This document shows, in pieces, positions 1,281 through 20,654 of a stretch of 24,000 nt of DNA (the first letter of the stretch is position 1; each line of letters opens with the position of its first letter). Location: contig CAUUUQ010000003.1 in assembly GCA_963548345.1 (NCBI GenBank), forward strand, positions 1-24,000, written 5' to 3'. Source of the stretch: an uncultured Atopobium sp. (GTDB taxonomy: Bacteria > Actinomycetota > Coriobacteriia > Coriobacteriales > Atopobiaceae). The notes below the pieces were generated by a model. That model was not told where the DNA came from, searched no databases, and saw only the letters and a program-made list of their open reading frames with translations. The position numbers and the translations under genes were made by a program.

Positions 1281-2354
1281 TTAGCTCAAAGACTTAACGT
1301 ACTTGTCCAGGTCGTCCTTGCTTGCAGGAGGAACAACGGAGCCAGCCTTGATCTTATCGAGAAGACCAATAGCTGCCTTGTAGGTGTCCTCACCCATGAG
1401 GTGGTGATCCTCAGCAATTCCGACAGCATCCTCGGAAGCGCCCAGAGAAATGGTGGTGCCACCCTTCTGGCCGTCCTTCAGGATCTTCTCGGAAATCTCA
1501 ACGATAGCAACGTTGACACGCTTAAGAGCGGAGGTCAGAACGTTCTCTGGAGCAAGATATGCCTGGTCACGGTCAACGCCGATAGCAAGCTTGTTTGCGT
1601 CCTTAGCTGCCTCAATAACGCCGGTTCCTACGCCGCCTGCAGCGTGGAAGACAACGTCGCAACCATCGGAGTACATGGAGTTAGCAATAGCCTTGCCCTT
1701 TGCAGCATCGGAGAAGGACTCTGCGTACTGTGCAGAAACCTCAACGTTGGTGTTGTTCTCCTTGTTTGCAAAAGCAACGCCGCCGCGGTAACCATACTCA
1801 AACTGGTCGATAAGTGCGGAAGAAATGCCGCCAACAAAGCCAACCTTGCCAGTCTTTGTGGTGCGAGCAGCAATGTAGCCAACAACAAAGGAAGGCTCCT
1901 GAGCGCGGAACATAACGCCAGTGAAGTTAGAAACCTGAGAATCGTTGCCGTTGTCGATGATGGCAAACTGGGTGTTTGGATTGTCCTTAGCAGCCTTAAG
2001 AGTTGCATCAGCCATAGCAAAGCCAACGCCCCAAACAAGGTCAGACTCAGCGTCAACAGCCTTATCAAGGTTGGTTGCGTAATCGGAATCCTGCTTGGAC
2101 TCAAGGTAGCTGACATCCCAGCCGTTCTTGTCCTTGAGCTCGGTCATGCCCTCCCAAGCAGACTGATTGAAGGACTGGTCGTTAACACCACCAGTATCGG
2201 TAACCATGGTGAGCTTCTTTTTCTTCTCACCTGATGCCTTCTGGCCGCCGTCGTCCTTCTTCTGGTTGCAGCCTGCAAGACCTGCAAGTGCTGCAAATGC
2301 GCCAACGCCGGTTGCGCCGGTCACAAAACTACGACGAGAAACGTTCTTGTTCAT
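1281..2354 (-). CDS. BMP-family (PnrA/Med-like) ABC substrate-binding lipoprotein, probable nucleoside-binding protein
   Basis: 357-aa ORF. The N-terminus MNKNVSRRSFVTGATGVGAFAALAGLAGCNQ combines an RR-type signal with a lipobox LAGC. The body fits the BMP family pattern (TDTGGVNDQSFNQSAWEG, GFVGG, AIGVDRDQ). It is flanked by deoD and an ABC ATPase. Confidence 0.9.
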   Translation of the reverse strand: MNKNVSRRSFVTGATGVGAFAALAGLAGCNQKKDDGGQKASGEKKKKLTMVTDTGGVNDQSFNQSAWEGMTELKDKNGWDVSYLESKQDSDYATNLDKAVDAESDLVWGVGFAMADATLKAAKDNPNTQFAIIDNGNDSQVSNFTGVMFRAQEPSFVVGYIAARTTKTGKVGFVGGISSALIDQFEYGYRGGVAFANKENNTNVEVSAQYAESFSDAAKGKAIANSMYSDGCDVVFHAAGGVGTGVIEAAKDANKLAIGVDRDQAYLAPENVLTSALKRVNVAIVEISEKILKDGQKGGTTISLGASEDAVGIAEDHHLMGEDTYKAAIGLLDKIKAGSVVPPASKDDLDKYVKSLS

Positions 2355-2517: not shown

Positions 2518-3228
2518 TTAAGCAACAACAGAAAGAGCAACCTCCATCATCTGCGTGAAACTAGTCTGACGCTCTTCAGCAGTAAGTGCTTCTCCTGTAA
2601 GAGGCAAATCAGAGATAGTTAGCAGCGTAAGCGCATGCTTATGAGCGTACATGGCGTTGAGATACAGGGCTGCCGACTCCATCTCAACGGCAAGAACATC
2701 CATGCTTGCCCATTTAGAAAGCGAGTTGTCTACGGTATAGAACACGTCGCTTGCCAGAATATTACCAACGCGAACGGGATAGCCCAGCTTTTCTGCACCA
2801 GCAATAGCCTTGCTCAACAGGCCAAAGTCTGCGGTAGGTGCAATGGTTCCAGGCATTCCGTACTGTGATGGATAATTAGAATCAGTGCTGGAAGACATGC
2901 CAATAACAATGTCTCTAAGCTTTACCTCAGGAGCAAGGCCGCCAGCGCTACCAATGCGGAGAATGTTGTCAACTCCGTAGAAATTAAAGAGCTCGTAAGA
3001 ATAAATACCAATGGAAGGCATACCCATACCAGAACCCATAACGGAGACTGGCTGTCCCTTGTAGGTGCCGGTGTAGCCAAACATATTGCGAACGGTGTTG
3101 AACTGCTCAACGTTCTCCAGGTACGTGTCTGCAAGAAGCTTTGCACGCAAAGGGTCACCTGGCATGAGGACCGTCTTAGCAATCTGGCCCTCAACAGCAG
3201 CGTTATGGGGAGTTGGGGTAGTAGCCAT
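2518..3228 (-). CDS. deoD: Purine nucleoside phosphorylase, DeoD type
   Basis: 236 aa, colinear with E. coli DeoD as recalled ([68 protein letters not shown]). Its ATG overlaps the deoB stop (TAATG). Confidence 0.95.
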
Positions 3229-4418
3229 TAGTTCTCCTTAAGAATCTCTGACAGGTGAGAAGTTCCAACACCAAGTTGCTCAACGCCAAAATAATCAAGA
3301 ATTGTCTCGGCCATATCGGCAAATGTAGCGGTTGTACCAAGGTTGGTGTTTGGCTCGACCTTTGGACCCGTGATAAGCAGTGGCACGTACTCACGAGAGT
3401 GATCAGTAGATGGTGTTACTGGGTCACAGCCATGATCTGCGGTGATAATGAACAGGTCATCCTCGCGAAGGCCCTCAATAATCTGAGGAATACGCTCGTC
3501 AAAGTAAGAAAGAGCGTTGGAGTATCCCACAGGATCGTTGCGGTGACCGTAAATCATGTCAGTGTCAACAAGGTTGGTGAAACACAGGCCATTAAAGTCT
3601 TTGCTGGTGGCCTCAATAGTCTTTTGAATTCCATCAGCGTTGCAGGTGGTGAACTCAAACTCAGTCATGCCACGGTGAGCAAAGATGTCATAAATCTTGC
3701 CAATAGAAAGAACGTCAAAGCCGTTCTCTTTAAGGCGATCAAGCATAGTTGGGCCCGTTGGCTCAAGCGAGAAGTCATGACGGCGAGAAGTGCGCTGATA
3801 TGGCCACTCTCCCTCAAAAGGACGAGCAATAACACGAGCAACACCGTGCTCACCCTGAAGAATCTCGCGCGCAATGCGGCAATACTCATAGAGTTTCTCG
3901 GGACTTACCACGTCCTCATGTGCAGCAATCTGGAAAACAGAATCTGCTGAGGTGTAGACAATCAGAGCACCAGTCTCTACGTGCTCTTTACCAAAGTCTC
4001 TAATAACGTCGGTTCCGGAGTAAGGTTTGTTGCAGAGAACCTTGCGGCCCGTCTTCTGCTCAAACTCCTCAATGACCTCCTGTGGAAAACCATCAGGATA
4101 AGTTGGGAACTTCTTTGGAGAAATGACGCCTGCCATCTCCCAGTGACCAACCGTAGTGTCTTTACCAGCGGATTTCTCCTGCATGCGAGCATATGCGCCC
4201 TCAGGAGACTCAATTGGCTTCAGATCAACGTCATAAACGGTATCAAGTGCTCCATCAATATTAAGAAGGCCCAACTTTGTCATATTTGGGATAGTAAGAA
4301 CGCCACTTGTTGCGCAGGCACAAAGGGTATTGCTACCCTCGTCTCCGTATGCCGCTGCATCAGGCTCTTCGCCGATGCCAAAACTATCAAGAACAACTAC
4401 AAAAACACGTTTAGGCAT
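3228..4418 (-). CDS. deoB: Phosphopentomutase
   Basis: The ORF track starts at 4469, but TAGGAGGTAGT precedes the ATG at 4418. The family N-terminus [17 protein letters not shown] begins there (compare E. coli [15 protein letters not shown]). Supporting motifs are [22 protein letters not shown] and DHSREYVP. Confidence 0.93.
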
Positions 4419-4794: not shown

Positions 4795-4825
4795 TCGGAT
4801 TCTATTTTTGCTGCTAGGAGGCCTG

Positions 4826-5908
4826 ATGCTCACCAATCGAGAACAGATGATTTTTAACTGGATTAAAGAGCAGCCTTCTATTACTCAGAAGGAAATTGCA
4901 GAGCGTGCAGGTATCTCACGTTCTTCTGTTTCGGTTCACATCTCCAACCTTACCGCAAAGGGCGCAATTTTGGGCCGCCGCTATATTTTGAGCGAGCGCC
5001 CCTACTTTATTGTGATTGGCGCTGCCAACATGGATATTGCTGGCCGCCCAGACGCTTCCCTTGTAGCGGGAGATTCAAACCCTGGCAAGGTCACCATGTC
5101 CTTTGGTGGCGTTGGCAGAAATGTTGCCCACAACCTAGCCCTTCTCGACAGTGACGTTCGTCTGCTCACCGCTTTTGGCGAGGACTATCGTGCGCGCGAG
5201 CTCAAAGAGGGCTGCCTGGACTGCGGCATTGACATCGATGCTTCTATTACCGTGCCGGGCGCTTCCACTTCCACCTACCTCTTCATCATGGACGAGCACG
5301 GTGAGATGCAGGAAGCCATCAATGACATGCAGATTTACGAGTATGTCACCCCTGAGCGCATCGAGGAGCGCCTGGATGTTATCCAGCACGCCGCAGCTTG
5401 CGTGATTGACACCAACCTACCTCAGCAGACCATCGAGTTCATTGCCAAGAACGTGACCTGCCCAATCTTCTGCGATCCCGTTTCTTCCATCAAGGCGCAG
5501 AAGCTCAAGAAGGTTCTGGGCAAAATTCACACGCTCAAGCCAAATCGCCTTGAGGCCGAGATGCTCTCGGGCATCAAGATTACTGACGATACCTCCCTTG
5601 AAGCCGCAGCTCACGAGCTGCTTGCAACAGGACTGAAGCGCGTGTTTATCTCCCTTGGCGAGAAGGGCCTTCTTTGTGCTGATCACGAGAAGACCGTCCG
5701 CTTGCCACTGCTTCCTGCAAAGCTCGTCAACATGACAGGCGCAGGAGATGCCATGATGGCGGGAATTACCTGGGCGTACACTCAGGGCATGACGCTTGAG
5801 CAAACCGGCCTGGTAGGCATGGCTGCTTCCAGCATGGCCATTGAGGGTGAGGACACCATCAACGGTGAGCTCAACGTTGAAGAGGTTATCAAGCGCGCAG
5901 GTATTTAG
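4826..5908 (+). CDS. psuK: Pseudouridine kinase (PfkB family) with N-terminal winged-helix HTH domain
   Basis: The ORF opens at TTG 4808, but AGGAGG sits 4 nt before ATG 4826. The N-terminal ~55 aa form an HTH (ITQKEIAERAGISRSSVSVHISNLTAKGAI). The kinase part is colinear with E. coli PsuK/YeiC (GAANMDIAG, DSNPGK, GGVGRNVAHNLALL, IHTLKPNRLEAEMLSGI, NMTGAGDAMMAG). As recalled, the HTH+kinase layout matches E. coli YeiI. Confidence 0.88.
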   Translation: MLTNREQMIFNWIKEQPSITQKEIAERAGISRSSVSVHISNLTAKGAILGRRYILSERPYFIVIGAANMDIAGRPDASLVAGDSNPGKVTMSFGGVGRNVAHNLALLDSDVRLLTAFGEDYRARELKEGCLDCGIDIDASITVPGASTSTYLFIMDEHGEMQEAINDMQIYEYVTPERIEERLDVIQHAAACVIDTNLPQQTIEFIAKNVTCPIFCDPVSSIKAQKLKKVLGKIHTLKPNRLEAEMLSGIKITDDTSLEAAAHELLATGLKRVFISLGEKGLLCADHEKTVRLPLLPAKLVNMTGAGDAMMAGITWAYTQGMTLEQTGLVGMAASSMAIEGEDTINGELNVEEVIKRAGI

Positions 5909-5999: not shown

Positions 6000-6926
6000 A
6001 TGTCAAACCTGAAGGATTTTCTCGTTGTATCTAACGAGGTCAAAGAGGCTCTTGAGCAGAACAAGCCTGTTGTAGCTCTGGAGTCCACCATCATTTCGCA
6101 CGGTATGCCTTACCCACAGAACGTTGAGACCGCTCTAAAGGTTGAGCAGATTATCCGCGACAACGGTGCAATTCCTGCAACTATCGCAATTATTAACGGC
6201 CAGATGCGTGCCGGCCTTTCCGCTGGCGAGATTGACTACCTGGGCAAGAAGGGCCGCGAGGTTGCTAAGGTTAGCCGCCGCGACCTTCCTGTTATCATCG
6301 CTGAGAAGAAGGACGGTGCAACTACCGTCACTACTACCATGATGATTGCTCACCTGGCAGGCATCGACGTCTTTGCAACCGGCGGCATTGGTGGCGTTCA
6401 CCGTGGCGCTGAGACCACCATGGACATTTCCGCTGACCTCGAGGAGCTTGCACAGACTCCTGTTATGGTCATTTGCGCTGGTGCAAAGTCCATTCTTGAC
6501 CTTGGCCTTACCCTTGAGTACCTGGAGACCAAGGGTGTTCCAGTACTTGGTTACCAGACCGAGGAGCTTCCTGCGTTCTACACCCGCAAGAGCGGCTTTA
6601 GCGTTGACTACCGTGTTGACTCCCCTGCTGAGCTGGCAGAAATCTTTACTACCCAGCAGCAGATTGGCATGAACAGCGGTCTTCTGGTCACCAACCCAAT
6701 TCCTGAGCAGTATGCAATGGATAAGGACACCATCGACGCAGCTATCGAGAAGGCCCTTGCAGAGGCAGAGGCAAACGGTATCCACGGCAAGGAGTCCACA
6801 CCATTCTTGCTGGCAAAGGTTGCTGAGATCACTGGTAACAACTCCCTTGAGTCCAACATTCAGCTGGTCTTCAACAACGTTGCTCTTGGCGCAAAGGTTG
6901 CTGCAGAGGTTTGCAACCGCAAGTAA
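6000..6926 (+). CDS. psuG: Pseudouridine-5'-phosphate glycosidase
   Basis: 308 aa. VVALESTIISHGMPYPQN, VFATGGIGGVHRGAETTMDISADLEELA, ICAGAKSILDLGLTLEYLETKGVP, TNPIPEQ and GKESTPFLLAKVAEITGNNSLESNIQLVFNNVAL all match E. coli PsuG/YeiN as recalled. Confidence 0.95.
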   Translation: MSNLKDFLVVSNEVKEALEQNKPVVALESTIISHGMPYPQNVETALKVEQIIRDNGAIPATIAIINGQMRAGLSAGEIDYLGKKGREVAKVSRRDLPVIIAEKKDGATTVTTTMMIAHLAGIDVFATGGIGGVHRGAETTMDISADLEELAQTPVMVICAGAKSILDLGLTLEYLETKGVPVLGYQTEELPAFYTRKSGFSVDYRVDSPAELAEIFTTQQQIGMNSGLLVTNPIPEQYAMDKDTIDAAIEKALAEAEANGIHGKESTPFLLAKVAEITGNNSLESNIQLVFNNVALGAKVAAEVCNRK

Positions 6927-7014
6927 GTGCTCGCACGCGCTGCGTAAGCACCACGTAAGTACACGTGCGAACGCCGTGTAAGCATCGCATTTCTTTTGGC
7001 CCCTACGTCGTTTT

Positions 7015-7056
7015 AACTGCCTCCCATTTCTTGGACATAAGAAATGGGAGGCAGTT
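7015..7056. repeat. Perfect 18-bp-stem palindrome (copy 1)
   Basis: AACTGCCTCCCATTTCTT-GGACAT-AAGAAATGGGAGGCAGTT. There is no flanking T- or A-run, so it is not a canonical terminator. Confidence 0.9.
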
Positions 7057-7296
7057 CATATGCAGGTGATTATGATTCTGCAGCGTGTTAGCGTCGGCTT
7101 TTAGGCCTGGCCCACAAAATAGCGCAGCTTTGGTAGGTTCTGCCGAAGAATCGACATGTTCCTAATCAAGATAGCCAGGCTGCTAGGTGGTCTCCCTACT
7201 TGATATGCATTTCTATGCATAAACTTCATGTAATATGCTGAATAATGAATAGAGAAATATAAAGAATTTAACTATGGGTAAATTCCGCTTCTAAGG

Positions 7297-7427
7297 AACA
7301 CACCTATGACAGATATTCTGCACAATTGCGGCCATATTACACATCAAATGAAGATAATCTGCACGTTTGAGGTATTTTCGACGTCATGTATACGTCTTTT
7401 TGACAGATTATCTGTCATAGGTGTGTT
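7297..7427. repeat. 19-bp perfect inverted repeat pair enclosing 93 bp
   Basis: AACACACCTATGACAGATA (7297-7315) and its exact reverse complement TATCTGTCATAGGTGTGTT (7409-7427). The right copy overlaps a local palindrome TGACAGAT-T-ATCTGTCA (7401-7417). Confidence 0.9.
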
Positions 7428-7430
7428 TTG

Positions 7431-7472
7431 AACTGACTCCTATTTCTCGTGTCCAAGAAATGGGAGGCAGTT
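7431..7472. repeat. Imperfect second copy of the 7015-7056 palindrome
   Basis: AACTGACTCCTATTTCT-CGTGTCC-AAGAAATGGGAGGCAGTT. The loop is in the opposite orientation to copy 1. The 21-bp string AAGAAATGGGAGGCAGTTCAT is identical at 7039-7059 and 7455-7475. Confidence 0.85.
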
Positions 7473-7690
7473 CATTTGACGTGGGGCTTTTCTATCTTGC
7501 GGCAGCTTGACCGCGGGCGGACTGTGGCCTGACCGCGACCTAATCGCAGCCCGATACTGTTCAAGAAAATTGTCTCAAAAAGTGGACAAAAGTCCTTATT
7601 TTTATTTTTGCTAGCAGGTACAATTACTCAAACTTAAGCCGAAACTGTCCTGTAAAGAGGACTTACGAAACAAGAACAGCGAGGTCTCGT

Positions 7691-8422
7691 GTGAACGTCC
7701 TAACCTACCTTGATAGTCTTGATTCCGACGTTCGCAAGAAGATCATCAAATGGGCTTCTCGCGTTCCTGCTAATCGTCTTTCTCACTGTAGGCAGATTCG
7801 TCTTAATTCCGGACAGACCCTTGTCCACATGCTGGACCGCGTTGATAACGTGTACATTCTGTGCCGCGGCACCGTGCGCACCACGTCGCACAATTCCGCA
7901 GGTAGCACGTATGTTATTGACGAGTATCGCGCCCCTGTTGCTTTTGGCGAGATGGAAGTTATCAGCGAGAGTCCCTTTTATCTGGGATCGCTCACCGCAA
8001 CTTCCGGCTGCGAGTTTATTTCGGTCCCACGTGAGGACTACCTGCAGTGGATTCGTTCGGACCCCGAGGCTCTTCTCACCCGCTCGCGCTGGATTATCAA
8101 GAACCTCACGCGTCAGTCCGGCTACGAGCGCAGCCTGCTGACCTGGAGCGGCACCAAGCGTCTGATGTACATGCTCAGCGAGCTGACGCGCGATCAGATT
8201 CACCGCGGCGTCGTTGAGTGGCCGTTTACCGTGCGTCTGACCAGGCAAGAGCTGGCGGACAAGATAGGTACCAGCACAAAGACCGTTGCCCGCGGTATCG
8301 ACGAGCTTAAGGAGAGGGGCATGGTTTCTGTTCAGCACGGCAAGATTGTCATTACCGAGAGGCAGTTCCAGCGCCTCGATGACGCAATGAAACACGAGGG
8401 AGAAACCCACCTTCTGGACTAA
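7691..8422 (+). CDS. Crp/Fnr-family transcriptional regulator (cNMP-binding-like domain + C-terminal HTH)
   Basis: 243 aa with a GTG start and GCGAGG upstream. It has a beta-roll signature around PVAFGEMEVI and a Crp-type HTH, LTRQELADKIGTSTKTVARGIDELKERGMV. It lacks the FNR-type N-terminal Cys cluster. Confidence 0.8.
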   Translation: MNVLTYLDSLDSDVRKKIIKWASRVPANRLSHCRQIRLNSGQTLVHMLDRVDNVYILCRGTVRTTSHNSAGSTYVIDEYRAPVAFGEMEVISESPFYLGSLTATSGCEFISVPREDYLQWIRSDPEALLTRSRWIIKNLTRQSGYERSLLTWSGTKRLMYMLSELTRDQIHRGVVEWPFTVRLTRQELADKIGTSTKTVARGIDELKERGMVSVQHGKIVITERQFQRLDDAMKHEGETHLLD

Positions 8423-8587
8423 CCTCTGTACCTGGAACAATGCTTGGGCAAGACCGTTCTTCTCGCCCCAGGCACTGTGCACCCCACCTGGCATGACACA
8501 CTTCTCGCGCCACGCCGCACATGGAACGACCGACGTACCCGTCGTAATCACAACCCTGTTTTCGCAGGATAAACGTAAGGAGCACTA

Positions 8588-10090
8588 ATGAGCGAGTTCA
8601 TGGACATCATTACTTCCGACAACCTCTCGTACAAGCAGAAGGTTCTGCACCTGGCTCAGGCTGCCGAGAACTCCGAGCATCCTATCAAGACGACCGCTGA
8701 ATTTGATCGTCTTTTTGCAGCTCACGCGCTTGACGATATGTGTGAGGGCAACGCTCCTTACCGCCCTCGCTACATCTGCCCTGACTACCAGGTATTTGCT
8801 CAGAATGGTTCCGAGTTTTTGCGCTTTGACAAGCCAGAGACCCTTGATGATCTGCTCTGGGGCCTCGCCGCTCTCTACGACAATGTTCCTTCCGTTACCA
8901 GCCGCCCTGTCTACGTTGGCCAGCTGGACAAGATCATTGATCCATTCTTGGAGGGCATGACCGACGCAGAGATTAAGCCTCGTCTGCGCCGCTTCCTGAA
9001 CCACATCGACCGCACCGTTGCAAGCGGTTACTGCCACGCAAACATTGGTCCAGAGGACACTCGCGCAGGTAGACTGCTTCTTGAGGTTGACCGCGAGCTC
9101 ATGAACGCCGTTCCAAACTTCACTCTCAAGTACGACCCAGAGGTCACATCCGACGAGTTCATGCGCCTGGCAGTCAAGACCACCATGGTCTGCTCCAACC
9201 CCGCGTTTGCTAACCACCGCATCCACAAAGAGACCTACCCTGGCGAGTATACCGTCGTAAGCTGCTACAACGTCCTTCCTATGGGCGGCGGCGCTTACAC
9301 TTTGAGCCGCGTTCTTCTCCCTGGCCTTGCAAAGCTCGCAACCAACGTTGACGACTTCATGAACAACCTGCTGCCAACCGCAACCGGCGAGGTTTTGAAC
9401 TTCATGAACGAGCGCGTCCGCTTTATTGTTGAGGATTCCAACTTCTTTGAGACCAGCTTCCTGGCTAAGGAAGGCCTCATTTCTCGCGAGCGCTTCTGCG
9501 GCATGTTTGGCGTTGCCGGCATGAGCGAGTGCGTCGCTGAGCTGCTGCACCTTGATAGCAGCCGCACTTACGGCAAGGATGACGAGGCCAACGAGCTGGC
9601 CGACAAGATCATGGTCAAGATTGCCGACCAGGTCAACAGCTTTGACGCTGTTTACTCCGAGGTCTTTGGCGGCCGCTTCACTCTGCACGCACAGGCTGGC
9701 TTCTCCGATCAGCAGGGCGTTACCCCTGGTGTCCGCATCAAGGTTGGCGACGAGCCTGCAAACCTCTATGACCACATTCGCCACAGCGCACGTATGCACC
9801 GCTTCTTCAACAGCGGCGTCTCCGACATTTTCCCAGCTGAGCCAACTGCTGAGCGCAACCCAGACGCTGTCGTTGACGTGGTCAAGGCCGCATTCTCCAT
9901 CGACGACAAGTACCTCTCGTTCTATAGCTCTGAGGGTGACCTGGTCCGCATTACCGGCTTTTTGGCTAAGCGTTCCGAGATGAAGAAGTTCCAGTCCGGC
10001 GACGTTGTTCTTCAGGACACCGCTCACGACGGTCTGGGCAACTTCACCGCTAACCACCTTGCCGACCGCAAGGTTCGCATGAGCGACTAG
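8588..10090 (+). CDS. yjjI: YjjI-family glycyl-radical enzyme (function unknown)
   Basis: 500 aa, with AAGGAG 5 nt before the ATG. The C-terminal segment SSEGDLVRITGFLAKR resembles the RVxG[FY] glycyl-radical fingerprint (Gly codon at 9956-9958). Its size, its pairing with a YjjW-type activase and its position next to deoC match E. coli yjjI. Confidence 0.8.
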   Translation: MSEFMDIITSDNLSYKQKVLHLAQAAENSEHPIKTTAEFDRLFAAHALDDMCEGNAPYRPRYICPDYQVFAQNGSEFLRFDKPETLDDLLWGLAALYDNVPSVTSRPVYVGQLDKIIDPFLEGMTDAEIKPRLRRFLNHIDRTVASGYCHANIGPEDTRAGRLLLEVDRELMNAVPNFTLKYDPEVTSDEFMRLAVKTTMVCSNPAFANHRIHKETYPGEYTVVSCYNVLPMGGGAYTLSRVLLPGLAKLATNVDDFMNNLLPTATGEVLNFMNERVRFIVEDSNFFETSFLAKEGLISRERFCGMFGVAGMSECVAELLHLDSSRTYGKDDEANELADKIMVKIADQVNSFDAVYSEVFGGRFTLHAQAGFSDQQGVTPGVRIKVGDEPANLYDHIRHSARMHRFFNSGVSDIFPAEPTAERNPDAVVDVVKAAFSIDDKYLSFYSSEGDLVRITGFLAKRSEMKKFQSGDVVLQDTAHDGLGNFTANHLADRKVRMSD

Positions 10091-10109
10091 CGAGAAGAGC
10101 TGCGCAATC

Positions 10110-11084
10110 GTGACCTTCACTGCAACAGAAACAACTTTGGGAGTAACACGCGCCGAAGCATCGCGTCCCGCGACCGCAAGCACCGCGTCACCGCAACCTG
10201 TGGCATCGCGCGACGAAGCAACCAATTCAGGAGCAGCACATCCAACCGGGTGTGTTGCTCCTGTCAATAAGATCATTCCCTTCTCGCTGGTAGATGGCCC
10301 AGGAAGCCGAACCGCCGTCTTCCTCCAAGGCTGCAACATTCGCTGTGCCTACTGCCACAACCCCGAGACCCAGGTAGAGTGCATCTCCTGCCAGGCGTGC
10401 GTCAAACCATGCCCAGCTCACGCCCTGTCTGTGGCTGACGGAAAAGTTGTGTGGGACAACTCCATCTGCATCAACTGCGACAACTGCATCAAGGTTTGCC
10501 AGCACAAATCCACTCCGAAGATTGAGCTGCTCAGCGCTCGCGAGGTGGCCGACCGCTGCATTTCCAACATGCCGTTCATTCGCGGAATCACCACTTCGGG
10601 CGGCGAATGCATGCTCCGTCCCGACTTCCTCTACGAGCTCTTCACCTACTGCAGCGCGGCCGGCCTGAGCTGCCTCATCGACTCAAATGGCACCATCGAC
10701 TTCACCGAGTATCGCGACCTGCTGGCCCTCTCAGCCGGCGTCATGCTTGACGTAAAGGCTTGGGACGATCAGTGGTTTGAGCATCTGACCGGCGAGAATG
10801 GCGTCACGGTCCGCAAAAACCTTGCGTTTTTGGCCGAGCAAAACAAGCTGGAAGAGGTCCGCGTCATCGTGACCGAAGGCTGGAACGACGCCGAAGCCGC
10901 GGTTGACGGCATTGCCTCAACCCTTGGCGAGAAGGTCAGTCAGACGCGCATTCGCCTCATGAAGTTCAGGCGTTTTGGCGTGCGCGGACCGATGGAGAAC
11001 TCCCCTTCTCCAAGCGACGAACGCATGCAGGCAATTGAGTCGCAGGCCCGCAACCTGGGCTTTGGCGAGGTTGTCGTCAGCTAG
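10110..11084 (+). CDS. yjjW: YjjW-type glycyl-radical enzyme activase (radical SAM); start codon uncertain
   Basis: It carries the CNIRCAYCHN radical-SAM CX3CX2C motif and two ferredoxin-like clusters, CISCQACVKPC and CINCDNCIKVC, plus GGECML. There is no in-frame ATG before the catalytic domain; candidate starts are GTG 10110 and GTG 10200. The first ~50 aa are low-complexity and Ala/Thr/Ser/Pro-rich. Confidence 0.85.
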   Translation: MTFTATETTLGVTRAEASRPATASTASPQPVASRDEATNSGAAHPTGCVAPVNKIIPFSLVDGPGSRTAVFLQGCNIRCAYCHNPETQVECISCQACVKPCPAHALSVADGKVVWDNSICINCDNCIKVCQHKSTPKIELLSAREVADRCISNMPFIRGITTSGGECMLRPDFLYELFTYCSAAGLSCLIDSNGTIDFTEYRDLLALSAGVMLDVKAWDDQWFEHLTGENGVTVRKNLAFLAEQNKLEEVRVIVTEGWNDAEAAVDGIASTLGEKVSQTRIRLMKFRRFGVRGPMENSPSPSDERMQAIESQARNLGFGEVVVS

Positions 11085-11115
11085 TTGACGCGGCGGCGCG
11101 GACTACGACTCACAC

Positions 11116-11128
11116 GGGTTTCTCGCCA
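11116..11128 (+). repeat. Copy B1 of the dispersed motif GGGTTTCTCGCCA
   Basis: It is part of a 35-bp-period direct repeat CTCACACGGGTTTCTCGCCA / CTCTCACGGGTTTCTCGCCA in the yjjW 3' region. Confidence 0.8.
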
Positions 11129-11150
11129 CAATTCAAGCCGCAGCTCTCAC

Positions 11151-11164
11151 GGGTTTCTCGCCAG
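11151..11164 (+). repeat. Copy B2 of the dispersed motif GGGTTTCTCGCCAG
   Basis: Exact 14-mer, preceded by CAC as in copy B1. Confidence 0.8.
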
Positions 11165-11191
11165 TTTCTGCGCTTTTTCATTGCAGCAAAT

Positions 11192-11230
11192 AACGACCTC
11201 GCAGCACATGCCACGAGGTCGTTTTCATTT
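11192..11230. terminator. Rho-independent terminator between convergent yjjW and deoC
   Basis: AACGACCTCG-(12-nt loop)-CGAGGTCGTT followed by TTCATTT. The reverse strand has TATTT after the stem. Confidence 0.7.
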
Positions 11231-11274
11231 ATCTATCAGTGAGGCGCCGGTTCAGCAAACTCCAGCTCAACGAG

Positions 11275-11916
11275 TTATTCGGTGACGATAGCAATTCCGC
11301 TGGAGCAGCCCAGACGATCAGCGCCCGCCGCGACCATTGCCTCTGCGTCAGCCTTATTATGAATGCCGCCAGCAGCCTTGACCTTGCAAGTGTCGCCGAC
11401 AGTCTGCTTCATCAGAGCAACGTCGTGAACAGTTGCGCCGCCGGTGCTAAAGCCGGTACTTGTCTTAACGAACGCGGCTCCGGCAGCCATGCAATCCTTG
11501 CAAGCACGAACGATCTGCTCGTCGTCAAGGAGGCAGCACTCCAGGATTACCTTTACTGGCACGGAGCCGGCAGCCTCTACAACAGCCTTGATATCAGCAA
11601 TAACGTAATCGTCGTCTCCCGCGACCAGGTGTCCGCCGTTGATGACCATGTCGATTTCGGTGGTGCCGTCGTCGACGCTCTGCTTGGCCTCGGCGACCTT
11701 AGCTGCAGTTGAAGCTGCGCCCAGAGGGAAACCGATGCAGGAAGTGATGCCAACTCCGGAGCCCTCGAGCTCGGCGTGAGCCAGGGAAACCCAGCAAGAA
11801 TTGATAGCGACGGTTGCAAACTTGTACTGCTTTGCCTCGGCGCAAAGTTTCTTGATGTCCTCAGCGGTTGCGTTTTGCTTCAAGTTTGTGTGGTCGATAA
11901 GGCCGTTGACTTCCAC
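11275..11916 (-). CDS. deoC: Deoxyribose-phosphate aldolase
   Basis: The ORF track starts at 11994, but AGAAGGAGAAAATC precedes GTG 11916, giving VEVNGLIDHTNLKQNATAEDI, a typical DeoC N-terminus. Supporting motifs are EIDMVIN, FVKTSTGF (Schiff-base Lys region) and VKAAGGI. Confidence 0.92.
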   Translation of the reverse strand: MEVNGLIDHTNLKQNATAEDIKKLCAEAKQYKFATVAINSCWVSLAHAELEGSGVGITSCIGFPLGAASTAAKVAEAKQSVDDGTTEIDMVINGGHLVAGDDDYVIADIKAVVEAAGSVPVKVILECCLLDDEQIVRACKDCMAAGAAFVKTSTGFSTGGATVHDVALMKQTVGDTCKVKAAGGIHNKADAEAMVAAGADRLGCSSGIAIVTE

Positions 11917-11992
11917 GATTTTCTCCTTCTGGCTGTACGTTATGAGTGATTTGTGCCTCTCTATTGTACGGCAAGCACGACGTAAAAGATGC

Positions 11993-12067
11993 AACTACCT
12001 GGTTTTGCTATCCAGCTTAACTACCTGGCCGAGTTATCTGGCATAACTACCTGGCATAACTACTTGG
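11993..12067. repeat. Phased AACTACCTGG boxes (x4), including the tandem CTGGCATAACTAC x2
   Basis: Boxes at 11993-12002, 12019-12028, 12045-12054 and 12058-12067 (the last reads AACTACTTGG). Spacings are 26, 26 and 13 bp. The perfect 13-bp tandem spans 12038-12063. The tract lies upstream of deoC and overlaps the stop of the 12060-13088 gene. Confidence 0.9.
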
Positions 12068-13088
12068 CTTTGAATAGCCGCATCCACAGTGCTCGCTGAC
12101 GATTTTCAAGATCAGTAATAGTTGTGTCACGTGCGACTATTCCTGCAGACTCTCGAATCTGACGGACCAAACCTTGAACGCTTGAGAAGCTTTTAAGCAT
12201 CTCTCCAGAAACCGAAAAATGTGGACATTGCACGCCCGTTACCAGCTCGTTTTCTCTGTCCAAGTCTCGCATGACTCTTTGGCCGCCAGCGTGCGTTACC
12301 GCTGGATCATAATCTAGCAGCACCGTCGCTTGCTTCTTTCTTTTATCCTTGAGCTGAATGGTTAAGTCAGGAATTCGAGTGATTTTCTCGCCATATCGAT
12401 TTTCCAGCTCGATTGGCCTATTGAGCTCGACAGTACCCAAGTTAAAGCCACCAAGGTTATACGGGAGGCACAATAGCAGCGCAAGCGAAGCTTCTCGGGG
12501 CGACCGAGCTTTCTCTACGATGTGCTGAAGCGCTCGTTTAGCTGGGATGATGCCACGCTTTCTTCCTTGCGTGGAAAGAAACTTTGCGATTGCAGCACGA
12601 TTTGTCAGAGGGCCATTTTGGCGTTGCGAAACTCCACCATGGCCATCCTGATTCAAAAAATAATCGGAACACAAGGCACTACCTGCAAGGATTGTTCCAA
12701 TAAAATCAAGCTTTGAAGCAATCTGCAAATAAGTGAATTCTGGAGAAGTAATAAATCCTTTTAAGTCAGCACCTATAGGCAGGAGCGACGATGGCGAAAC
12801 CTTTGAATTACAGATGTGAAGCGTAGCGTGCTGTTTTGCAAATGTGGAATTCACATCATTAATAAGCAGGTCAACCTTGCCTTTAGGCTCCTGGTGAAGA
12901 CGCATGCCTTGTATTTCTGGAAGGTGTCCATAGTAGGCAGCAAGCTCTCGTTCAGTCGATACTCCCGGAGCTGATTCAGGAACAAGTGGCGCTCTGACCA
13001 TAGCATTTGATGCCGGCAGCGAATCAAATGGCCTAGAGGAACTCATCAATAAATTAAACGCTGAAAAGTACGAAAGACAGTAATCCAT
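12060..13088 (-). CDS. Hypothetical protein with a C-terminal DUF559/Vsr-like (PD-(D/E)xK-type) endonuclease-like region
   Basis: The ORF opens at 13121, but GAAGGAG sits 4 nt before ATG 13088. The C-terminal block RIPDLTIQL...ATVLLDYDPAVTHAGGQRVMRDLDRENELVTGVQCPHFSV resembles the D...(E/D)xDG..H...D..R layout of DUF559-type domains. The central SPEFTYLQIASKL...GSALCSDY recalls the AbiEi-like/DUF559-associated N-domain. This is recognition by eye only. The gene looks AT-richer than its neighbours. Confidence 0.45.
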   Translation of the reverse strand: MDYCLSYFSAFNLLMSSSRPFDSLPASNAMVRAPLVPESAPGVSTERELAAYYGHLPEIQGMRLHQEPKGKVDLLINDVNSTFAKQHATLHICNSKVSPSSLLPIGADLKGFITSPEFTYLQIASKLDFIGTILAGSALCSDYFLNQDGHGGVSQRQNGPLTNRAAIAKFLSTQGRKRGIIPAKRALQHIVEKARSPREASLALLLCLPYNLGGFNLGTVELNRPIELENRYGEKITRIPDLTIQLKDKRKKQATVLLDYDPAVTHAGGQRVMRDLDRENELVTGVQCPHFSVSGEMLKSFSSVQGLVRQIRESAGIVARDTTITDLENRQRALWMRLFKAK

Positions 13089-13316
13089 AGCACTCCTTCG
13101 CGAAAAAAGTATGAATTCCATACCCGGAAATGGCGCAAGTAATCTGACCGATTTGAAATCACACAGGAAATCTGTGCAAGATTTGTTGTTCTAGCATCCT
13201 CCCGGAGGCTTGCCGTGCAATTTCACTGGTCGACTTTCAAAATTCTGCATAATTACACTATTAAATTCATTTCTATGAATACGTAATTTTTGATCTCAAA
13301 ATTATGTGCCGAAAAA

Positions 13317-13705: not shown

Positions 13706-14920
13706 TTAGAACTCGACAGGAAGATCGAAGTAGACGCACTTAAGCAGCTGCTCCATCTCCTCCTGGGTAGGTTTGCGTGGGTTGGAAAGGGTGCAAGCGT
13801 CCTCGATAGCAAGGCGAGCAACCTCTGGAGCCTTCTCGAAGAACTCCTTCTCATCAATGATGGAGGTCTCGGACTTGGTTCCGCCCTCGCCGTAGTTCTT
13901 GATGCCCTGTGGGATATCAAGAGCGTCGTTGATGTCGCGAATCTTCTGAACAAGTGCCTCTACCAGCTCGTCCTCAGTATTGCCCTCAAGGTGCAGGATC
14001 TCCTTAGCAATGAATGCATAACGAGCCTTTGCACGCTCGTCACGAGCGTTGAACTGAATGACCTTGCCCAGATACATAGCGTTTGCGCAGCCGTGAATGA
14101 TGTGGCCACCGGAGAATGCTGCGCCGGTCTTGTGAGCCATAGAGTGAACAATGCCCAGAAGGCCAGAGGAGAATGCAATACCAGCAATGCACTGTGCGTC
14201 ATGCATGTGCTGACGTGCCTCTTTGTCGCCCTTGTAGGACTTTGGCAGCCACTCGACAATCTCGCGGATTGCGTGCAGAGCGTCGCCGTCGGTGTACATG
14301 GAAGCAACGGTAGAAACGTATGCCTCGATAGCGTGAGTCAGTGCGTCCATACCAGTGTGAGCAACAAGCTTAACAGGCATGCCGTAAGTGAGCTCAGGGT
14401 CAACAATTGCGACGTCAGGGGTAATCTGGAAGTCAGCGATTGGGTACTTAACGCCCTTCTGGTAATCGGTAATGATGGAGAATGCGGTTACCTCAGTTGC
14501 GGTACCGGAGGTAGAAGAAATTGCGCAGAAGTGAGCCTTGGTGCGGAGCTCAGGCAGACCAAAGACCTTGCACATGTCCTCAAACGTGGTCTCAGGATAC
14601 TCGTACTTGATCCACATAGCCTTAGCTGCGTCGATTGGGGAGCCGCCACCGATAGCAATGATCCAGTCTGGCTGGAACTCACTCATCTTAGCAGCGCCGC
14701 TCATAACGGTCTCGACGGAAGGATCGGACTCGACGCCCTCAATGTGAGCAACCTCAAAACCTGCGGACTTGAGGTCATTCTCGATGTCATCAAGGAAGCC
14801 GCCGCGACGCATGGAGCTACCGCCGGAAACGATGACTGCCCTCTTACCCTTGAGGTTCTTAACCTCGTGACGAGCACCCTCGCCAAAATACAGATCGCGT
14901 GGATTAGTAAAACGTCCCAT
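13706..14920 (-). CDS. Iron-containing alcohol dehydrogenase (resembles the C-terminal ADH half of AdhE)
   Basis: 404 aa. It has the GGGSPIDAAK dinucleotide-binding motif, TGMDALTHAIEAYVS, and the metal-ligand His region GIVHSMAHKTGAAFSGGHIIHGCANA. Confidence 0.9.
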   Translation of the reverse strand: MGRFTNPRDLYFGEGARHEVKNLKGKRAVIVSGGSSMRRGGFLDDIENDLKSAGFEVAHIEGVESDPSVETVMSGAAKMSEFQPDWIIAIGGGSPIDAAKAMWIKYEYPETTFEDMCKVFGLPELRTKAHFCAISSTSGTATEVTAFSIITDYQKGVKYPIADFQITPDVAIVDPELTYGMPVKLVAHTGMDALTHAIEAYVSTVASMYTDGDALHAIREIVEWLPKSYKGDKEARQHMHDAQCIAGIAFSSGLLGIVHSMAHKTGAAFSGGHIIHGCANAMYLGKVIQFNARDERAKARYAFIAKEILHLEGNTEDELVEALVQKIRDINDALDIPQGIKNYGEGGTKSETSIIDEKEFFEKAPEVARLAIEDACTLSNPRKPTQEEMEQLLKCVYFDLPVEF

Positions 14921-15206: not shown

Positions 15207-16415
15207 GTGGCGTTTGACCCAGTAAAAGAAGACTACCAGCGGCTTATCCTCCGCTTTGCTCGTACGCAAGTTGGCGACGAGGACAGCATTGCCACGCTGA
15301 TGAAGGACTTCAACTGGCGATTCTCCAACGACCGCGATTCTCTCCCCCAAACAGACGAAGACCGCGCGTTCAACCTGGTTGCTCAGGAGGCCGAAATTGT
15401 TGATTATCGCCTGCCGTTTGTCGAAGAATCTCAGGCGCAGGCCCTTATCGATCAGGGAAAACGCCTCCTCAATCAGGCAATTCAGCTGGACCCCAACTGT
15501 TTTGACGCTCAGCGCATGCTCCACGCCTCAAATAGCAGGCTTTTTGACGCTTACTATCAGTTCCTTGTGGAGAAGCTCCCCCAGGTAGAAGCCGCGTGCT
15601 ACCAGAAGGCGCAAGAGTCCTCGCAGGGACTCCCTGCCGAGCAGGCAGAACTTGCCCAGAGGCTGGCAATCAACCCCTATAAGCGCTGGTTAGCGACGCT
15701 TTCTTCTCGCGCGCTTATCTGCGGTCGAAACAAAGATGCCATCGCATATGGCGAGAAACTCCTGGAACTTGACGCTGCGGACGCAGCCGATGCTCGTTTT
15801 ACGCTTGCACTCGCATACGCAAAACTCGAGGACGAAGACGCCCTCGACAACCTTATGGACCAGTACCGCAAGCTAGATCCGCCTCGTGGGGCAGATGACC
15901 CGTGGATTTTGCTGGCTCGCTTGGCTATACACTTCAAGAAGCGTGAGTTGGTTGAAGCGGAACACTACCTTGACCTGCTGATTGAGCGCTATCCGGAGGC
16001 AACGCTTTGTTGCTTTGTGCAGAAAGATTTGCCCGAGGGAGAGTTCTCTCGCCTCAACGTGCTTCCCTACTCTGAGGACGAGCTCATCATTGCCATTGCA
16101 GAAGCATCTGTGTTGCTGCAAGAAGGAAATGACCTGATAGGACGCGGTGTTCTTGGTCGTTGGCTTGCAGATCAAGTTAGGGCGAGAGACCCTAAGACCG
16201 TTGAACTTGCAGAAAAAGAGCTGCAGATGCAGGCAAATGCTTTGTTCGCTTCGGCAGATTCGTTTCCTGATGGTCCGGGCGCCGCTCCTGACGGCCCGGT
16301 CGGCCCCGGCTTCCCTGACGGCCCCGGCTTCCCCGGAGGCCCCGCTGGTCCGTGGTCAAATGGACCGCATAGTGACGGGCCAAATAACCCACACTCAGGT
16401 GGTGATGCCAAGTGA
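15207..16415 (+). CDS. Hypothetical helical-repeat (TPR-like) protein with a Gly/Pro-rich C-terminal tail
   Basis: 402 aa with a GTG start and GAAAGGA upstream. No signal peptide or TM segment is evident. The tail reads PDGPGAAPDGPVGPGFPDGPGFPGGPAGPWSNGPHSDGP. It is a paralogue of the next ORF. Confidence 0.7.
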   Translation: MAFDPVKEDYQRLILRFARTQVGDEDSIATLMKDFNWRFSNDRDSLPQTDEDRAFNLVAQEAEIVDYRLPFVEESQAQALIDQGKRLLNQAIQLDPNCFDAQRMLHASNSRLFDAYYQFLVEKLPQVEAACYQKAQESSQGLPAEQAELAQRLAINPYKRWLATLSSRALICGRNKDAIAYGEKLLELDAADAADARFTLALAYAKLEDEDALDNLMDQYRKLDPPRGADDPWILLARLAIHFKKRELVEAEHYLDLLIERYPEATLCCFVQKDLPEGEFSRLNVLPYSEDELIIAIAEASVLLQEGNDLIGRGVLGRWLADQVRARDPKTVELAEKELQMQANALFASADSFPDGPGAAPDGPVGPGFPDGPGFPGGPAGPWSNGPHSDGPNNPHSGGDAK

Positions 16416-17440
16416 TAAAGCATTCCGCTAACGACATGGCCAGCGAGCAGGTAGACCGTCTGGTAGCTAAGTGCGCGCAAGAGAAGAACATCGTCTCTGA
16501 AGCTGCTCTCTATGAGTTGAAACTTGCGGTAGAAGCTTCGCCTGAAGACTTTATTGCTGACGAAGAAGAAAAGGCTTTCGCACAATACGTCAACGTCATT
16601 GGCAAGTATCAGGCTGGAATTACTAAAGAAATTGATTCCGATGCTGACTTCTTTGCAAGTCGCATGGACCTGCTTAACCTTTTGCATAATCAGATGACAA
16701 ATATTATTGAAAACCAAGCTCTTGCTAACACAAGCATCAATCTTGAAGCACAGCGAATTCTTGCGCAGATCTCCAACAATCATCCTGCAGCAATCCTCAA
16801 CGACCTACTTGACCTGCAAAAAGAATTTGACCCTATCTTTAGGCCAAAACTAGAGCAAGCAAAGAAAGCTCACGGCGATGCTTGGACCTGCGCTGAAGCT
16901 CGACCACTTTTGCGCCTCTACGCACAGATTGCCCAGGTAGCAACAGATTGCGCCTGTTTCAAGCTCTCCAAAAAAGCCTGTGAAGATCTTCTGTTCTTCT
17001 CGCCAACAGATTTGCTGGGTGCGCGTTTTACCTTGGCATATGTTCTTGCTCGCCTGGAAGATGAGGAAGGGCTCCACAAGCTTGATGAGGATTGCGGATA
17101 TCAATCAAATGCCTGGATGCGACTTGCGTTTACGCTGTTGTTCTTCAAGTTGAATCGCATGTCCGCGGCAAAGCGCGCGCTGAAGGGCTTTGTTAACCTC
17201 GGCGAGGGAGCGGCATATGCACTGCTCAGGCCATCTTTTGTTGATCTCTACATTCCGTGCAGAATTAATTTCACACCTGATACGTTTGCCGAGAACGTTA
17301 TCGCAGTTCACGAGGCCGAGGCGATTATCGCTGACGTACCGGAATTTATTTCATGGGCAGAATCGGTGCCTGGCGTAACTCAGAGCGCTCGCGACTACGC
17401 GTTTAAGGCCGGACTGGACTGGTGGGAAAACGAAGAATAG
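16412..17440 (+). CDS. Hypothetical helical-repeat protein, paralogue of 15207-16415
   Basis: 342 aa. GTG 16412 overlaps the upstream stop (GTGA); ATG 16436 is an alternative start. It shares blocks with the upstream protein, for example ARFTLAYVLARLEDEEGLHKL versus ARFTLALAYAKLEDEDALDNL. Confidence 0.7.
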   Translation: MIKHSANDMASEQVDRLVAKCAQEKNIVSEAALYELKLAVEASPEDFIADEEEKAFAQYVNVIGKYQAGITKEIDSDADFFASRMDLLNLLHNQMTNIIENQALANTSINLEAQRILAQISNNHPAAILNDLLDLQKEFDPIFRPKLEQAKKAHGDAWTCAEARPLLRLYAQIAQVATDCACFKLSKKACEDLLFFSPTDLLGARFTLAYVLARLEDEEGLHKLDEDCGYQSNAWMRLAFTLLFFKLNRMSAAKRALKGFVNLGEGAAYALLRPSFVDLYIPCRINFTPDTFAENVIAVHEAEAIIADVPEFISWAESVPGVTQSARDYAFKAGLDWWENEE

Positions 17441-17508: not shown

Positions 17509-17583
17509 GTCCCCATCGTCTAACGGTTAGGACATCGCCCTTTCAAGGCGGCAATACGGGTTCGATTCCCGTTGGGGGCACCA
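17509..17583 (+). tRNA. tRNA-Glu (anticodon UUC), CCA encoded
   Basis: Manual cloverleaf: acceptor GTCCCCA/TGGGGGC, anticodon stem TCGCC/GGCGG with loop CTTTCAA (TTC at 17542-17544), T arm ACGGG-TTCGATT-CCCGT, then A-CCA. Confidence 0.92.
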
Positions 17584-20466: not shown

Positions 20467-20654
20467 AGGTCCTCCGAAGTGAGTAAGAAATTAGTCATGC
20501 ATACGTTAGGTACAAGACAAGTAGTATACAAGTTTCTGAAAGAGAACAGAATAGGAGTTATGCGTCTTTTCATCTGTTATAACGCCACTTGAATTTAAAA
20601 GCTCTATTTACTGATCGATAGAAAGAGAAGACTTATTCATAGCTTCTCCTTATG

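Follow-up and report, generated by a model that had tools for sequence, protein, structure and literature searches.

A YjjI-family glycyl radical enzyme locus in an Atopobium-like bacterium and its probable link to nucleoside catabolism

The closest described relatives of the system considered here are YjjI and YjjW of Escherichia coli, a glycyl radical enzyme family member and its activase. Both genes are activated by FNR in E. coli (PMC2634741) and induced anaerobically in Yersinia intermedia (PMC3792023). Residue G465 of E. coli YjjI has been labelled in live cells, in a report that in August 2026 still termed the protein uncharacterised (bioRxiv 10.64898/2026.08.13.742689). In the searchable literature, which leaves out most subscription journals, we found no characterised YjjI and no nucleoside-linked glycyl radical enzyme of any kind. 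We analysed a homologous locus, crp-yjjI-yjjW, in a 24,000-nucleotide stretch of DNA (contig CAUUUQ010000003.1, hereafter the window) and compared it with related loci in other bacteria. The window belongs to an Atopobium-like organism of the Atopobiaceae (Coriobacteriia), which is represented chiefly by metagenome bins from human-associated samples. The comparison suggests that the YjjI system probably serves nucleoside catabolism, and we lean towards reading crp-yjjI-yjjW as genes transcribed together to provide an oxygen-sensitive glycyl radical enzyme for anaerobic nucleoside utilisation.

In E. coli K-12, yjjW-yjjI (b4379/b4380) is divergent from deoCABD across a gap of 257 bp, in agreement with the initial annotation of the window, which had placed the two immediately beside each other. 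The two DeoR operators of the deo operon are 599 bp apart (positions 10665-10680 and 11264-11279 of locus L001): one stands before deoC, and the other, O1, the perfect palindrome TGTTAGAATTCTAACA, falls within yjjI, roughly 400 nt into its coding sequence. The region of the deo P1 promoter thus runs antisense through part of yjjI, coupling the two loci very closely in physical terms. Chromatin immunoprecipitation sequencing of CRP gave peaks both inside yjjI and in the yjjI/deoC spacer (PMC4287617). The elements of the corresponding system in the window are as follows.

7583-7596, no strand assigned: putative operator TGGACAAAAGTCCT, with two mismatches to the cross-phylum consensus AGGACAnnTGTCCT, from the cross-locus palindrome comparison
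7619-7624, plus strand: -10-like hexamer TACAAT, 22 nt after the operator, part of a predicted promoter
7691-8422, plus strand: Crp/Fnr-family regulator of a YjjI-linked subfamily, with cNMP_binding and HTH_Crp_2 domains
8588-10090, plus strand: YjjI-family glycyl radical enzyme of 500 residues, from PF11230, TIGR04040, an AlphaFold2 model and a fold search
9263-9265, plus strand: codon of Cys226, the predicted thiyl-radical cysteine (motif S-C-Y-N), the only family-invariant Cys, at a hairpin tip in the model
9956-9958, plus strand: codon of Gly457, the predicted glycyl radical site (motif RITGF), invariant and at a hairpin tip in the model
10110-11084, plus strand: YjjW-family activase of the radical S-adenosylmethionine (radical-SAM) type with a ferredoxin-like two-cluster insert, from TIGR04041 and the Radical_SAM, Fer4_12 and Fer4_7 domains

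We compared 88 loci, comprising the window, E. coli K-12, six sister contigs and 80 loci from GTDB genomes, and collapsed them at 80% YjjI identity to 33 lineage groups from Coriobacteriia, Clostridia, Tissierellia, Bacilli, Spirochaetota, Bacteroidota, Elusimicrobiota and E. coli. Neighbours were defined as genes within 10 kb of yjjI and were counted either from targeted phmmer labels with family clustering or from a stricter set of non-overlapping open reading frames (ORFs). Single-linkage clustering of ORFs was rejected as the sole basis of the counts because it merged some families and caught antisense ORFs; the targeted labels were preferred. Nucleoside genes were found near yjjI-yjjW in 27 of the 33 groups and shared a directon with yjjI in 14. 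The dominant partners were nucleoside transporters, phosphorylases (DeoD, Udp and Pdp), cytidine deaminase, DeoB and PsuK/PsuG, with uridine phosphorylase present in about 9 groups (TIGR01718, up to 324 bits). The numbers of groups with each partner were:

YjjW: 32 by phmmer and clustering, 29 in the stricter set
ABC (ATP-binding cassette) ATPase and permeases: 22 by phmmer and clustering, 20-21 in the stricter set
Bmp-type binding protein: 18 in the stricter set (not grouped in the other count)
Crp orthologue: 17 by phmmer and clustering, 16 in the stricter set
PNP/Udp-type phosphorylase: 16 by phmmer and clustering, 14 in the stricter set
DeoB: 10 by phmmer and clustering, 8 in the stricter set
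DeoC: 8 by phmmer and clustering, 6 in the stricter set
PsuK and PsuG: 7 and 6 by phmmer and clustering, 6 and 5 in the stricter set
Cytidine deaminase: 5 in the stricter set
Pdp/DeoA: 4 in the stricter set

Several lineages carried extended operons. One example was Crp-YjjI-YjjW-Bmp-ATPase-permease-permease-Cdd-Pdp in Tissierellia; others were YjjI-YjjW-Bmp-ABC-Crp-Udp-DeoD-Cdd in Lachnospiraceae, Udp | YitT-Bmp-ABC-esterase-GntR-YjjI-YjjW-DeoB in Clostridia and psuG-YjjI-YjjW-Bmp-ABC in Elusimicrobiota. The psuK/psuG genes recurred beside crp-yjjI in loci of Coriobacteriia, Oscillospiraceae and Elusimicrobiota. Four types of nucleoside transporter occupied the position beside yjjIW: the Bmp-type ABC system in 18 of 33 groups and widely among Gram-positive lineages, NupC/CNT in Edwardsiella and a second locus from the enterobacteria (L091), a NupG-type symporter (PF03825, 537 bits) directly 3' of crp-yjjI-yjjW in Neobacillus, and an ECF (energy-coupling factor) transporter together with uridine phosphorylase in two Caproiciproducens-like loci (L041 and L043). 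That four non-homologous families swap places beside yjjIW is the strongest argument against inherited synteny. Binomial tails, illustrative since the groups are not fully independent, ranged from 2e-5 to 1e-19 at an assumed, generous background of 1-5% per 20-kb neighbourhood, and co-localisation with nucleoside genes across phyla is far above any plausible background, so that the earlier view of the linkage as unlikely to be chance was upheld. The same annotation had singled out deo genes, and deoC in particular. Here the part concerning nucleoside genes in general stood, across phyla; deoC itself proved to be a minority neighbour (8 of 33 groups), so what yjjI is linked to is the uptake and breakdown of nucleosides as a whole.

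A second operon type was seen in five Clostridia loci (L060, L069, L058, L084 and L053), in which yjjIW occurred together with genes for a YitT-family membrane protein, a GntR/FCD regulator, an esterase and uridine phosphorylase, while the gene for a Bmp-type binding protein ran divergently. This arrangement may mean that the compound taken up is a nucleoside with a modification or an acyl group.

The regulator directly upstream of yjjI contained cNMP_binding (PF00027, 44.6 bits) and HTH_Crp_2 (PF13545, 44.4 bits) domains, and an alignment of the window protein with 16 orthologues showed no FNR-type N-terminal Cx2Cx5C cluster in any of them, as had been read for the window protein at the outset. 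These orthologues, which occurred beside yjjI in 16-17 groups, form a group of their own with the conserved motifs F-AP--FGE-E and TRQ-IA-E-G-S-KT-NR. Comparison of the upstream regions revealed a 14-bp palindrome, AGGACAnnTGTCCT (AGGACA-N2-TGTCCT). Of 14 loci left after de-replication, 8 had it in front of crp, versus no more than 2 in shuffled controls. At one mismatch or less it was found in approximately 25 loci of Coriobacteriia, Tissierellia, Bacilli and Clostridia, almost always as a site 40-120 bp 5' of crp or yjjI, with the rest of the ~20-kb locus free of it. Two sister metagenome-assembled genomes (L024 and L027) have AGGACAAAAGTCCT as the putative operator. In most of 19 aligned loci the site was followed at 22 nt by a -10-like hexamer (TATAAT, TACAAT or TATATT), which places the centre of the palindrome near -41.5. 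About -41.5 is the position used by class II Crp/Fnr activators. For the window this spacing predicts a transcription start near 7631. We infer that the adjacent Crp-family protein activates the crp-yjjI-yjjW promoter from this predicted class II site, by binding AGGACAnnTGTCCT near -41.5 and driving transcription of all three genes.

The operator emerged only from the cross-locus comparison: no recurring perfect palindromes were found in the window's own intergenic regions, and a promoter and terminator consensus scan of positions 6900-12100 gave nothing above shuffled sequences. When the window was scanned with the operator consensus at up to two mismatches, the crp-upstream site and one probable chance match were recovered, with 0.94 matches expected. 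The latter, ATGACATAGGTCCT at 20460-20473, has two mismatches and overlaps the start of a GntR-transketolase fusion gene described below. The same scan detected no second convincing operator before the deo, psu or bmp genes of the window. The initial annotation had proposed possible control by the adjacent regulator; the conserved operator at a class II position supports this for crp-yjjI-yjjW, and an extension of such control to the window's deo and psu genes was not supported. The regulator appears to be private to crp-yjjI-yjjW and to the genes predicted to be co-transcribed with them in other species. Elsewhere, one Clostridia locus (L053) has a second perfect operator copy, AGGACATTTGTCCT, at 11587-11600, 93 bp upstream of a PF00756 'putative esterase' gene. 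Several Clostridia have this esterase gene in their YjjI operons, and it may also belong to the regulon.

Several observations weigh against a role of YjjI in nucleoside catabolism. The 80 GTDB loci are the relatives closest to the window and are biased to Coriobacteriia and Bacillota, with Proteobacteria represented by four loci; a homologue search with E. coli YjjI as the query returned only Enterobacterales, which limits the sampling of that phylum. The lineage groups are phylogenetically non-independent and the background rates were assumed. The link is drawn from genome context, and the argument for elimination over reduction made below is based on residue conservation alone. No nucleoside genes were within reach in Proteus (L089) or in L067, L068, L073 and L085, and a regulon shared by the regulator with the deo and psu genes had to be dropped, the operator lying only before crp-yjjI-yjjW. 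Finally, a 2011 biclustering study grouped yjjI with narG, among genes under FNR/Nar control, and proposed a role in nitrogen metabolism (PMC3228777). The last three observations could also mean that the nucleoside linkage is non-functional, a product of inherited synteny or operon hitch-hiking, and that YjjI acts elsewhere, for example in nitrate or nitrogen metabolism. However, gene order, strand and partners vary by lineage while the functional theme persists, four unrelated transporter families substitute for one another, the genes share a directon in 14 of 33 groups, and family clustering of the loci detected no nitrogen-metabolism genes recurring near yjjI. We therefore regard a non-functional linkage as highly improbable, and retain nucleoside catabolism as the probable role of the system.

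The identity of the enzyme itself is clear. The window protein matched Pfam PF11230 (YjjI-like) with 707 bits over model positions 1-485 of 485 and NCBIfam TIGR04040 with 606 bits against a curated cut-off of 498, and it is 39% identical to E. coli YjjI. It is an ordinary, intact member of the named family. Values of dN/dS (the ratio of nonsynonymous to synonymous substitution rates) of 0.006-0.025 against sister Atopobium contigs show that yjjI is under strong purifying selection and is no chance ORF. The protein contains SSEGDLVRITGFLAKR, in which Gly457, followed by 43 residues, aligns with E. coli Gly465, is invariant in all three alignments (A1, A2 and A3) and lies in a sequence that fits R-[IV]-T-G-[YF]. 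By analogy with the in vivo labelling of E. coli G465, which is indirect evidence here, Gly457 is the predicted radical site. Cys226 is the only cysteine invariant family-wide (alignment A3, with members 33-42% identical to the window protein); Cys202 is kept in closer relatives only. Four Arg and two His are also invariant in the family alignment, and such a set would suit an anionic substrate or a phosphate ester. Candidate pocket residues are E53, R61, Y62, D141, H150, N177, R241, E295, H367, Q369 and R383. YjjI was present in at least 597 GTDB species representatives, including gut, oral and environmental anaerobes, and a profile search of 1.84 billion cluster representatives recovered approximately 20 full-length YjjI representatives at 50% identity. 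This combination of a compact family and wide species spread suggests one conserved function.

The yjjW ORF starts 19 nt past the yjjI stop codon, and YjjW adjoins YjjI in 29-32 of the 33 groups. The window protein scored 387 bits against TIGR04041 (activase_YjjW; cut-off 250) and contains three cysteine motifs: the radical-SAM motif CNIRCAYCHN (CX3CX2C) and the clusters CISCQACVKPC and CINCDNCIKVC. NrdG models reached only 40-66 bits, far under their cut-offs, and the PFLE_PFLC subfamily model reached 143 bits. The start codon of yjjW is uncertain, with in-frame candidates at 10110, 10200 (GTG) and 10254 (TTG); sister-contig gene calls range from 294 to 323 aa. The first 49 codons of the longest ORF (10110-10256) are low in complexity, rich in Ala, Thr, Ser and Pro, and outside the family model, and a TTG start at 10254 gives exactly the 276-residue length of the YjjW model. 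Every statement on the window's sequence in the initial annotation that we checked held, among them the assignments of YjjI and YjjW, with the gap and the three motifs between and within them, Gly457 as the radical glycine, and the proposed facing Cys loop, which holds C226, the sole invariant Cys, at the tip of a β-hairpin in the model. Three refuting conditions set for that annotation (no significant YjjI/YjjW model match, G457 out of register with the radical glycine, and no co-localisation across genomes) were examined, and each came out in its favour.

An AlphaFold2 model of the window YjjI (predicted local distance difference test score, pLDDT, 90.7; predicted template modelling score, pTM, 0.91) placed Gly457 at the tip of hairpin E452-455/E458-461 and Cys226 at the tip of hairpin E221-224/E228-231, which is where the two finger loops of such an enzyme should carry them. 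No solved structure of a YjjI family member was found in PDB sequence searches with YjjI profiles. A Foldseek search of the PDB with the model gave 89 matches at E ≤ 0.001, the best 50 of which were all NrdD, pyruvate formate-lyase (PFL), dehydratases or decarboxylases, and the modelled protein shares the ten-stranded α/β barrel of solved glycyl radical enzymes. Among the matches listed, the closest were class III ribonucleotide reductases (8p2s_B, E 1.4e-15, TMq 0.76), with PFL-class folds (PflD, HypD, propanediol dehydratase and PFL) a close second at TMq 0.68-0.73; identities over these matches were 9-14%.

This proximity raises the possibility that YjjI is a stripped-down ribonucleotide or ribonucleoside reductase which makes deoxy products for DNA synthesis as a form of salvage. 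In addition to the fold, Pfam NRDD (PF13597) gave a weak match (E 9e-5), the YjjI Gly motif LVRITGYLV is near-identical to LQRITGYLV of Prevotella copri NrdD, and the gene adjoins nucleoside importers. However, the NRDD score of 21.8 bits is below the gathering score of 26.2, and a PDB profile search with YjjI reached NrdD only at E 0.04, giving no usable residue-level alignment. The Pfam scan detected no ATP cone in the window YjjI, and there are no zinc-ribbon cysteines, as the protein has no Cys beyond residue 315 whereas E. coli NrdD has C644, C647, C662 and C665. In a weak, low-confidence hhalign alignment with E. coli NrdD (E 0.037), which is a rough guide only, NrdD C384 lands three residues from C226 and neither C175 nor M382 has a conserved counterpart, leaving one invariant Cys and no second catalytic Cys or Met. 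Moreover, the activase, with its ferredoxin insert, belongs to the PflA/PflC and not to the NrdG type, E. coli already has nrdDG, and the neighbours are catabolic (phosphorylases, deaminase and aldolase) and not kinases or replication genes. On these grounds the assignment of YjjI as NrdD was rejected, and a salvage reductase is distinctly unlikely.

A catabolic role leaves the question of chemistry. As in other members of its family, YjjW would abstract a hydrogen from Gly457, and the radical would then be passed to Cys226 on the facing finger loop. The system appears to be tied genetically to nucleoside import, phosphorolysis, deamination and pentose-phosphate handling. A ribosyl substrate is suggested because the closest fold is that of NrdD, the operons hold no further recurring conserved enzyme that lacks a known function, and the invariant Arg and His would suit a phosphate ester; tentatively, it would be a ribosyl compound derived from imported nucleosides, either the nucleoside itself or a ribose or deoxyribose phosphate. 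Elimination-type glycyl radical enzymes need just one thiyl cysteine. Since only one cysteine is invariant in YjjI, we prefer elimination over an NrdD-type reduction, and the Cys226 thiyl might set off a 1,2-elimination on the sugar that is redox-neutral and expels a vicinal hydroxyl or phosphate. The absence of a recurring unknown-function enzyme from yjjI operons implies that the product would have to feed ordinary enzymes such as DeoC or those of central metabolism; a pentose derivative of the deoxy or keto kind is a possible product. An elimination or deoxygenation of the ribosyl moiety is a doubtful proposal. We raise as a tentative possibility the broader idea that YjjI carries out a radical reaction unprecedented among enzymes, with a free ribosyl compound from beyond the nucleotide pool as its substrate, under a dedicated Crp-family sensor of a nucleoside-derived ligand.

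The substrate could instead be a base, such as uracil released by Udp, Pdp or PsuG, or an RNA-derived modified pyrimidine nucleoside refractory to the standard enzymes. The neighbours do lean towards pyrimidines (Udp in ~9 groups, Cdd in 5, Pdp/DeoA in 4 and PsuK/PsuG in 5-7), all of them converging on uracil, and the NupC found beside yjjIW in Proteobacteria prefers pyrimidine nucleosides. On the other hand, purine phosphorylases of the DeoD type occur just as often, yjjI operons show no recurrent ring-opening enzyme or other downstream step of base catabolism, the NrdD-like fold points to sugar chemistry, and we know of no glycyl radical enzyme that acts on a pyrimidine ring. Action on a base thus seems unlikely, and a ribosyl substrate is what we carry forward.

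The comparative evidence narrows the substrate list of YjjI to nucleosides, pentose phosphates and pyrimidine bases, and the recurrence of the linkage in many unrelated bacteria tells where to seek the substrate. If the broader idea holds, for instance as a C2 elimination or deoxygenation or as a loss of phosphate, ribonucleosides would have a direct C5-to-C3+C2 route via DeoC in anaerobes; chemistry that proved a sugar-level analogue of ribonucleotide reduction would give glycyl radical enzymology a new reaction class and anaerobic nucleoside fermentation in host-associated microbiota a new branch. The breadth of the nucleoside linkage, the replacement among four transporters and the regulator-operator pair do not appear in the literature that could be searched, again with most subscription journals outside it. 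Together they make a long-standing question about YjjI directly testable, with a candidate operator-regulator pair for ligand screening and two tractable hosts, E. coli and Neobacillus, both with a small operon.

The remaining genes of the window bear out the nucleoside neighbourhood originally described, with deoC convergent and deoB, deoD, a Bmp protein with a partial ABC ATPase, psuK and psuG all within 8 kb. The features outside crp-yjjI-yjjW are:

1-1133, minus strand: ABC ATPase, partial, for nucleoside uptake
1281-2354, minus strand: Bmp/PnrA-type binding protein (PF02608, 270 bits)
2518-3228, minus strand: DeoD-type purine nucleoside phosphorylase (NF004489, 320 bits)
3228-4418, minus strand: phosphopentomutase DeoB (NF003766, 519 bits)
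4808-5908, plus strand: psuK, a helix-turn-helix (HTH) domain fused to a PfkB kinase (Pfam/NCBIfam matches)
6000-6926, plus strand: psuG, pseudouridine-5'-phosphate glycosidase (Pfam/NCBIfam matches)
11275-11916/11994, minus strand: deoC, deoxyribose-phosphate aldolase, convergent with yjjW (TIGR00126, 252 bits, cut-off 117)
13706-14920, minus strand: iron-containing alcohol dehydrogenase (Fe-ADH and ADH_Fe_C domains)
17509-17580, plus strand: tRNA gene (Rfam)
20767-20848, minus strand: tRNA gene (Rfam)

The deoC gene was called with 213 aa in sister contigs. In psuK, the domain fused to the PfkB kinase is an N-terminal winged-helix HTH (MarR/HTH_24). The spacer between psuG and the regulator (6927-7690, 765 bp) contains repeats: a strong hairpin spans 7016-7060, aagaaatgggaggcagttcat recurs as a second copy at 7457-7477, and cacacctatgacagat (7301-7316) and atctgtcataggtgtg (7409-7424) form an inverted repeat. 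The spacer looks like the remnant of a small mobile element. The iron-containing alcohol dehydrogenase, found near yjjI in 3-5 of 33 groups and linked to it within Atopobiaceae only, is a possible acetaldehyde sink. Three conserved ORFs, at 12060-13121 (minus strand), 15207-16415 and 16412-17440 (both plus strand), had no Pfam or NCBIfam match and were rejected as members of the system because they occurred only in Atopobiaceae and lacked a family match; the last two recur, much diverged, in the Atopobiaceae loci L028 and L030 and nowhere else among the loci compared. A further possible domain fusion involved a 579-aa ORF at 18727-20466 (minus strand), in which a GntR HTH and a UTRA effector domain are joined to the N-terminal, thiamine-diphosphate-binding half of a split transketolase. 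The pyrimidine-binding, C-terminal half is a separate ORF at 17645-18739 (minus strand) with a 13-nt overlap. The 579-aa gene was also called in sister contigs, and it may be a regulator-enzyme fusion. No riboswitch was found in the window, its Rfam matches being the two tRNAs only.

Compared with known systems, the window pair is closest to E. coli YjjI/YjjW (TIGR04040/TIGR04041, PF11230), with which it shares the Gly and Cys loops, the adjacent activase, a neighbouring deoC and 39% identity. The E. coli pair differs in having no Crp-like partner, in being FNR-activated and in carrying DeoR operator O1 in its coding region, whereas the window has a dedicated regulator with a putative operator, and its nucleoside genes are not the same set. 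Class III ribonucleotide reductase NrdD resembles YjjI in its ten-stranded glycyl-radical barrel (TMq up to 0.76-0.77), RxTGY-type Gly loop, finger-loop cysteine and ribose-related genomic context. However, YjjI is only 11-14% identical to it and ~200 residues shorter, lacks the ATP cone, the zinc ribbon and a second catalytic Cys or Met, and has an activase of the PFL type instead of the NrdG type. The PFL-class eliminases, such as HypD, propanediol dehydratase and PflD acting on a 1,5-anhydro-sugar phosphate, are nearly as close in fold (TMq 0.68-0.73) and likewise have a ferredoxin-like insert in the activase, and the single essential thiyl cysteine fits elimination chemistry. At some 750-850 residues these eliminases are longer than YjjI with its 500, and their Cys loop bears C-x-E where YjjI has S-C-Y-N. 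The regulator is like the class II Crp/Fnr activators CRP, FNR and PrfA in its cNMP-binding and HTH_Crp_2 domains and in a palindrome at about -41.5 that replaces the -35 element, and its operator shares the 6-N2-6 geometry of the PrfA box, TTAACAnnTGTTAA. It differs in its distinct half-site, AGGACA, in the absence of FNR cysteines and in an apparent regulon consisting of the yjjI operon only.

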